Below, one piece after another: positions 1 through 313 of a DNA stretch of 314 nucleotides. The translations under genes and the position numbers were made by a program. How positions within the stretch are numbered: the first letter of the stretch is position 1; each line of letters begins with the position of its first letter. The stretch lies in NCBI RefSeq assembly GCF_003334385.1, contig NZ_QOWN01000207.1. The stretch is one strand, 5' to 3'. This DNA is from Escherichia coli (GTDB lineage Bacteria > Pseudomonadota > Gammaproteobacteria > Enterobacterales > Enterobacteriaceae). The notes beneath the pieces were generated by a model. That model made no database searches and had not been told where the DNA came from. It worked only from the letters and a program-made list of their open reading frames with translations.

Positions 1-313
1 AGAGAGCGTAGGCCAGTTCGTCATCCAGTGTTTTCCATGTCTGCTTGTATTCGCGATGAATGGCAGCAATGACCGGGTTGATTTTTCCTGTTGAATTTTC
101 AGTGTGCTGTTGATTGGCTCTGGCGCGGGCGAGATCAACAACAGACGTGTATTTTCCGGCTTCCTTGCGTTCACCTTCGCGACGTTTTTTCCAGATGCGC
201 ATCTCTGCCTGAATTTCGGGCCATTTGGCACCAGGCTTACATTTATGCTTAACCCACCCGATGGCATGCAGCTTAAGCTCCGGATACATGGCGTTAACTT
301 CTGGCATTTTCAT
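1..313 (-). CDS. Hypothetical protein, partial (N-terminal 104 codons; C-terminus beyond the window start). Hydrophilic with a basic Lys/Arg cluster; function not recognised.
   Basis: Reverse-complement translation from the ATG at + 311-313 runs 104 sense codons to + 2 with no stop, leaving + 1 as the first base of the next codon. The other two minus-strand frames stop within the first few codons. Codon usage favours CTG, CCG, GCC, CGC, AAA and GAA, typical of enterobacterial genes. Amino-acid composition is protein-like and mixed charged/hydrophobic. The true start is uncertain because only one base lies upstream of the ATG inside the window, so no Shine-Dalgarno can be checked and the frame could extend further upstream. 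Confidence 0.8.
   Translation of the reverse strand, partial: MKMPEVNAMYPELKLHAIGWVKHKCKPGAKWPEIQAEMRIWKKRREGERKEAGKYTSVVDLARARANQQHTENSTGKINPVIAAIHREYKQTWKTLDDELAYAL

Follow-up and report, generated by a model that had tools for sequence, protein, structure and literature searches.

A lysine/arginine-rich predicted helix end in the N-terminal module of a RecE-related prophage exonuclease of Escherichia coli

RecE, the exonuclease VIII of the Rac prophage, is in its full-length form the basis of direct-cloning recombineering. Its long N-terminal region boosts linear–linear recombination, and DNA-end tethering has been speculated for this part of the protein. Two kinds of charged helix also offer a comparison. 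Arginine-rich or basic-helix nucleic-acid-binding peptides, such as those of the lambdoid N proteins, are short helices rich in Arg and Lys, and recognised ER/K single alpha-helices are far longer than 10–12 residues. Here we analyse a Lys/Arg-rich segment encoded within a 314-nt stretch of E. coli DNA (the window), which is an internal part of a prophage exonuclease gene. This gene is known, widespread and annotated before, and the charged stretch itself is ordinary. Literature searches on ydfE, on Rv2179c-like prophage proteins and on the N-terminal domain of RecE yielded no functional data for the segment region.

As a short, helical Arg/Lys-rich run in a lambdoid prophage protein, the segment resembles the lambdoid N-type peptides. 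However, it lies inside an 823-aa protein, has only three Arg, which stand alongside three Glu, and its basic residues are not conserved. It resembles ER/K-type single alpha-helices in that opposite charges alternate at i, i+3/i+4 along a helix predicted to be exposed, but the exposed part would be only about 10–12 residues long and contains a Gly at 201.

The window is open throughout in one frame of the minus strand. This frame runs from position 313 without a stop (translation MKMPEVNAMY...WKKRREGERKEAGK...DDELAYAL); the remaining two minus-strand frames contain many stops, and the ORFs of the plus strand are two short ones of 53 and 32 aa. The translated 104-aa fragment matched the PHROG family phrog_2082 ('exonuclease', E=2e-74), with residues 1-104 aligned to profile positions 155-258 of 823, and an NCBIfam scan of the same fragment matched no family. 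By megablast, the window was matched in 3,946 of 5,426 complete E. coli genomes. Among the matches listed, the best E. coli copies, which include those of E. coli O157:H7 and VR50, were 100% identical to the window and lay inside genes annotated as exonuclease. Seventeen phage records also matched, including Tritos (99.0%) and mEp460 (99.7%). Many database entries are partial proteins. Two precomputed Pfam accessions are attached to close relatives: PF27430, which spans roughly the N-terminal 90 residues, and PF27432, which lies downstream and probably covers the window region.

We compared four loci for neighbourhood and numbering: E. coli O157:H7 TR01, phage Tritos, K-12 and VR50. The Tritos gene (gp27) has 2,472 nt and encodes 823 aa (L002:4540-7011); the window starts 462 nt into it, in the same frame. 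VR50 carries an intact 823-aa copy in a prophage adjoining ompW (L005:3040-5511), with 100% identity over the window region. The O157:H7 TR01 copy (L001:4540-8324) is split by IS1203, and in K-12 the corresponding gene is ydfE (L003:4079-5549), a pseudogene of the Qin prophage that is cut by IS2E. The gene order dicB-ydfD-exonuclease-xis-int occurs in all four loci, which have the same or nearly the same sequence. Judged from these copies, the window matches the Qin/CP-933P/PPompW-type exonuclease (ydfE; Tritos gp27; PHROG 2082) in frame, in its 823-aa length and in neighbourhood, with no substantial difference; its allele reads EAGK where most alleles of this type read ETGK. Frame and offset in the O157:H7, Tritos and VR50 loci show that the ATG at 311-313 encodes Met155, inside the protein, and is not a start codon. 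The original prediction, made from the sequence of the window, had taken the fragment for a complete small protein and numbered the segment 41-54. The fragment comes from inside a multidomain nuclease of 823 aa, and since the Met at 313 is codon 155, WKKRREGERKEAGK comprises residues 195-208. The features are collected in Table 1.

Table 1. Features of the window, with positions counted from its first nucleotide and residues numbered as in the 823-aa protein.
Feature	Position	Strand	Basis or remark
Internal part of exonuclease gene, codons 155-258	2..313	-	YdfE / CP-933P / PPompW type, 823 aa
Predicted helix 185-206, last well-packed helix of domain B	158..223	-	AlphaFold2 models
Lys/Arg-rich segment WKKRREGERKEAGK, residues 195-208	152..193	-	7 K/R, 3 E, net +4
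W195 codon (TGG), best-conserved position of the segment, presumed core anchor	191..193	-	Trp in 35 of 40 rows counting the query, column entropy 0.73 bits
K196-K197-R198-R199, lineage-specific basic block containing the A6 run	179..190	-	Alignment A1
TCGCGAA, upstream copy of 7-nt direct repeat	176..182	-	
R203-K204, family-conserved Arg-Lys pair	164..169	-	Aligned with Arg of RecE 'TDRGLL'
Low-confidence helix 212-227, then variable, gap-rich linker between domains B and C (residues 207-246)	38..157	-	AlphaFold2, alignment
TCGCGAA, downstream copy of 7-nt direct repeat	50..56	-	
First helix of domain C (TLDDELAYAL), residues 247-258	2..37	-	AlphaFold2 helix 247-257

The N-terminal part of the protein was modelled by AlphaFold2 on residues 1-344 with the 40-sequence alignment described below. 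The model had a mean pLDDT of 92.2 and a pTM of 0.51. It comprises an alpha/beta domain A (about 1-95), an all-helical domain B (about 105-206; helices 111-121, 129-140, 146-156, 165-178 and 185-206) and a helical domain C that starts at about 247, where L250 is nearly invariant in the alignment. The nuclease domain of the 823-aa protein, which lies outside the window, can be assigned as a DEDDh 3'-5' exonuclease. Pfam found one domain only in Tritos gp27, Rv2179c-like DEDD (PF16473) at 642-813 (E=5e-67), and nothing in 1-640. DEDDh-type motifs (DLET, WGNGANFD and HNALDD) were found by eye in the full-length sequence, and a PDB sequence search returned weak matches to the DEDD domain only (8kel and 8ken). 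PADLOC, run on the full-length protein, gave a weak and generic DEDDh match on the C-terminal domain only, and we therefore assign no defence system.

The relationship to RecE is one of shared and exchanged parts. Residues 262-625 match K-12 RecE 278-591 (BLASTP, E=2e-62, 40% identity), and the two are near-identical from about residue 470 on, including a CxxC...CxxC element. The end of domain B (W195...R203) aligns, via intermediate relatives, with RecE 'EAYLNADYTDRGLL', and both genes lie in an early-left region adjoining xis-int. In contrast, the C-terminus here is DEDDh 3'-5' (PF16473), whereas that of RecE is a PD-(D/E)XK 5'-3' nuclease, and at the aligned stretch K-12 RecE reads YLNADYTDRGLL and has no KKRR block. 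The NCBIfam ExoVIII model (NF007259) scored 290.8 bits against a cut-off of 1269, with the match confined to residues 453-625, and a local phmmer comparison with the PD-(D/E)XK region of RecE (600-866) gave no match to P0121. Because of this low ExoVIII score and the lack of the RecE nuclease domain, the exonuclease is best classed as a RecE-related mosaic and not as RecE. No recT is annotated in the O157:H7, Tritos and VR50 loci. The CxxC...CxxC element (CTACGQTGGGNCPDCG) occupies residues 551-566 of Tritos gp27, outside the window, and corresponds to RecE 517-532; it is possibly a zinc ribbon, and it sits in the stretch most similar to K-12 RecE.

The family as a whole is also mosaic, as shown by local mapping of modules across P0121-P0269. 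There are two alternative N-terminal modules, either domains A and B as here or the type found in K-12 RecE 1-180. A domain C common to both comes next, and after it a PD-(D/E)XK or a DEDDh nuclease; all four combinations were seen. Many relatives have C-termini unlike both nuclease types; for one of these, P0131, Pfam returned nothing significant.

The segment is basic, though a little less so than first thought. Seven of its 14 residues are Lys or Arg (K, K, R, R, R, K, K), not eight as had been counted, and these are interspersed with three Glu. The T6 run reported on the plus strand at 185-190 was borne out, and corresponds to A6 (codons AAA AAA) on the coding strand. Seven Lys/Arg per 14 residues is the maximum reached anywhere in the full-length protein, in this single densest stretch. 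This is set in a protein that is acidic overall (90 K+R against 150 D+E, net -60), in which residues 161-200 form the sole clearly positive 40-residue block (+6) and the strongly acidic blocks are 561-600 (net -14), 121-160 and 361-400 (net -8 each). The view that the segment is the most distinctive local feature therefore stands for its density of Lys and Arg. It is weaker for clustering as such, as shuffled sequences of the same composition reached 7/14 in 7% of cases for the full length (823 aa), 8% for residues 1-344 and 14% for the window's 104 aa. The basic cluster is real and locally distinctive, but statistically marginal.

To place the segment in its family, 173 relatives were collected from a search of 1.84 billion representative proteins, and per-column statistics were taken from an alignment of 39 relatives and the query (40 rows, alignment A1). 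Within the segment, only W195, R203 and, to a lesser degree, K204 persist across the 39 relatives. Position 203 is Arg in 31/39 rows and basic in 82%, K204 is basic in 62% and K208 in 44%. The original prediction had looked to homologues for conservation of the basic residues, and this failed for the KKRR block: position 196 is basic in 12% of the relatives and mostly Leu or Ile, and the next three positions are basic in 42% (K197), 20% (R198) and 20% (R199). The full set of seven Lys/Arg is confined to the closest E. coli alleles, WKKR[RQ][ED][GAS]ERKE[TA]GK, and to a second allele, RKKRMEKERKEGGA, which is about 57% identical. Relatives beyond these alleles have 0-6 Lys/Arg, and those at <=46% identity 2-6; in both counts most have 2-5, and net charges run from -3 to +3. 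In the 29 relatives below 40% identity the means are 3.2 Lys/Arg and a net charge of +0.6, and 15 of these 29 have a proline among the first eight positions of the segment.

As W195, R203 and K204 persist in the relatives whereas KKRR does not, the family-level motif reads W-hydrophobic-x(5-6)-R-[KE], with KKRR as a lineage-specific elaboration. The second E. coli allele keeps its seven Lys/Arg although W195 is replaced there, and this retained basic richness in a diverged allele may reflect a degree of selection within Escherichia for positive charge. In the linker just after the segment (query residues ~209-223), many distant relatives including K-12 RecE share the motif R-T-x-S-G-A-x-A-G-G-G-N-x-T-D-R; at the position of this glycine-rich motif the window's E. 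coli allele differs and reads SVVDLARARANQQ.

Structure prediction made the segment helical, the point on which the original prediction had sought a check. The segment forms the last third of helix 185-206, where the chain exits domain B, and a separate AlphaFold2 model of residues 100-245 gave the same helix. Confidence is high at the start of the segment and then falls, with a pLDDT of 96 at 191-200 and of 74, 70, 57 and 58 in the four following ten-residue blocks. It drops below 50 at 227-235, and alignment columns 224-239 are filled in 12-40% of the relatives only. Helix 185-206 carries a hydrophobic stripe (W185, I188, position 191, M192, W195 and position 196) that goes no further than 196; hydrophobic residues occupy positions 197-205 in <=24% of family sequences. 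As the stripe ends there, residues 197-206 would form a solvent-exposed extension of the helix. On a helical wheel K197, K204 and K208 lie opposite the hydrophobic stripe, and R199 and R203 lie on the stripe side. The spacing of K196/E200, R198/E202 and E200/K204 would permit intrahelical salt bridges. Fold searches placed the segment in no known DNA- or RNA-binding fold. Apart from uncharacterised proteins, the Foldseek matches in AFDB50 were essentially all from enterobacteria and carried the names exonuclease, ExoVIII or Qin prophage protein.

Variants in the databases touch the same region. The TCGCGAA copies are 126 nt apart, and in the database protein P0114 exactly the 42 codons between them (residues 200-241) are deleted in frame, so that the entire linker is lost together with half of the basic segment. 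This variant fits a dispensable connector, but P0114 is a single-member cluster and may come from a defective gene. A second database protein, P0117, reads WKNVAKVNARKPENTR after W195. Because this is the window's other frame, P0117 has lost one base in the A6 run; either an error in sequencing or a genuine pseudogene allele could account for it. The fragmentary relatives P0149, P0154, P0175 and P0211 also change frame in this region. A -1 slippery site at A6 was considered and rejected by eye, as the 0-frame heptamer is G AAA AAA and not X XXY YYZ.

At the nucleotide level the window was otherwise quiet. Rfam gave no match on the window and a promoter scan of it found no promoter-like site. 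Antisense to the gene, positions 165-190 of the plus strand could form a weak terminator-like hairpin with a 5-bp stem followed by the T6 run. As one terminator-like site was observed against 0.6 expected in shuffles, this hairpin is probably due to chance.

What, then, does the basic segment do? We favour the reading, with a probability of about 0.6, that it is an exposed, salt-bridged helix extension leaving domain B, anchored by W195 and bearing a lineage-specific positive patch, and that its role is structural. The segment would be the exposed C-terminal third of the exit helix 185-206 of domain B, a domain that belongs to the N-terminal, non-catalytic module of a RecE-related exonuclease encoded by a prophage. 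W195 would hold the helix in the domain core, and the family-conserved pair R203 and K204 would sit at the chain's exit from the domain. The KKRR block (196-199) would be a recent addition restricted to the E. coli lineage, and together with E200, E202 and E205 it would give i to i+3/i+4 pairs of opposite charge that stabilise the protruding helix. This helix would lead into the flexible, variable linker to domain C. From the W195 anchor, the R203-K204 exit pair, the charge-paired helix and the flexible linker, we infer that the segment most likely serves as a charged stalk or hinge. The positive patch, small and set on a strongly acidic protein, would be a by-product, and could attract nucleic acid or an acidic partner weakly and non-specifically by electrostatics.

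The original prediction took the segment as the likely DNA or RNA contact surface. On this reading the basic helix would serve to hold or guide DNA (or RNA) for the exonuclease domain at the C-terminus, or act as a tether for DNA ends. In its favour, it belongs to a nuclease, which must handle nucleic acid, and it is the stretch densest in Lys and Arg of a protein with a net charge of -60, in which residues 161-200 form the only clearly positive block. The predicted helix with K197, K204 and K208 on the face opposite the hydrophobic stripe, the conservation of R203 and K204 and the charge kept by two diverged E. coli alleles also speak for it. However, four of the seven basic residues (K196-R199) are unconserved, distant relatives have a net charge near zero and often a proline, and the net charge of the segment itself is only +4 because of the three interspersed Glu. 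The clustering is not significant against shuffles, the model's confidence decays along the segment into the adjoining variable linker, and the fold searches lend no support. Poor conservation or placement in a linker, which the original prediction had named as speaking against such a role, is largely what was observed. We therefore consider a nucleic-acid contact unlikely. In its stricter form, a conserved, specific nucleic-acid-binding site, the proposal is not supported, because most of the basic residues are not kept in relatives.

The positive helix might instead dock on an acidic surface, for example the protein's own 561-600 or the acidic tail of some partner from host or phage, and so regulate the nuclease. 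The very acidic stretches of the same protein (-14 at 561-600, -8 at 121-160 and 361-400) would offer partners, the pTM of only 0.51 despite a pLDDT of 92 implies that the arrangement of the domains is not fixed, and pairing of the N-terminal module with either of two unrelated nuclease domains is as expected for an adaptor or regulatory module. The case is wholly inferential, though, and meets the same poor conservation of the basic residues, so that we regard docking as improbable. The segment might also have no function of its own, being a fortuitous cluster of charges where the sequence is rich in Lys, tolerated because it lies at a domain boundary. The shuffle probabilities of 0.07-0.14, the rapid fading of basic character with divergence and the P0114 variant, which lacks residues 200-241, agree with this. 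Yet W195 and R203/K204 are clearly constrained, and the basic count is kept in two diverged groups of E. coli alleles; we give this explanation little credence too. A broader and speculative idea, with a low chance of being right, is that domains A, B and C of the N-terminal module act as an adaptor independent of the nuclease, which prophages combine with a 5'-3' PD-(D/E)XK or a 3'-5' DEDDh nuclease, and that the conserved W195...R203-K204 element, which the KKRR helix extends in E. coli, is part of its grip on DNA ends or on a partner.

By itself, a charged helix end in a widespread, annotated prophage gene matters little. The alignment nevertheless pinpoints a few constrained positions, W195, R203 and K204, in an N-terminal module that is shuffled between two unrelated nuclease domains. 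Among residues to mutate, a conserved role would be sought in R203 and K204, and a lineage-specific effect of charge in KKRR. If the adaptor idea were true, it would provide a first handle on the role of RecE's long N-terminal region.
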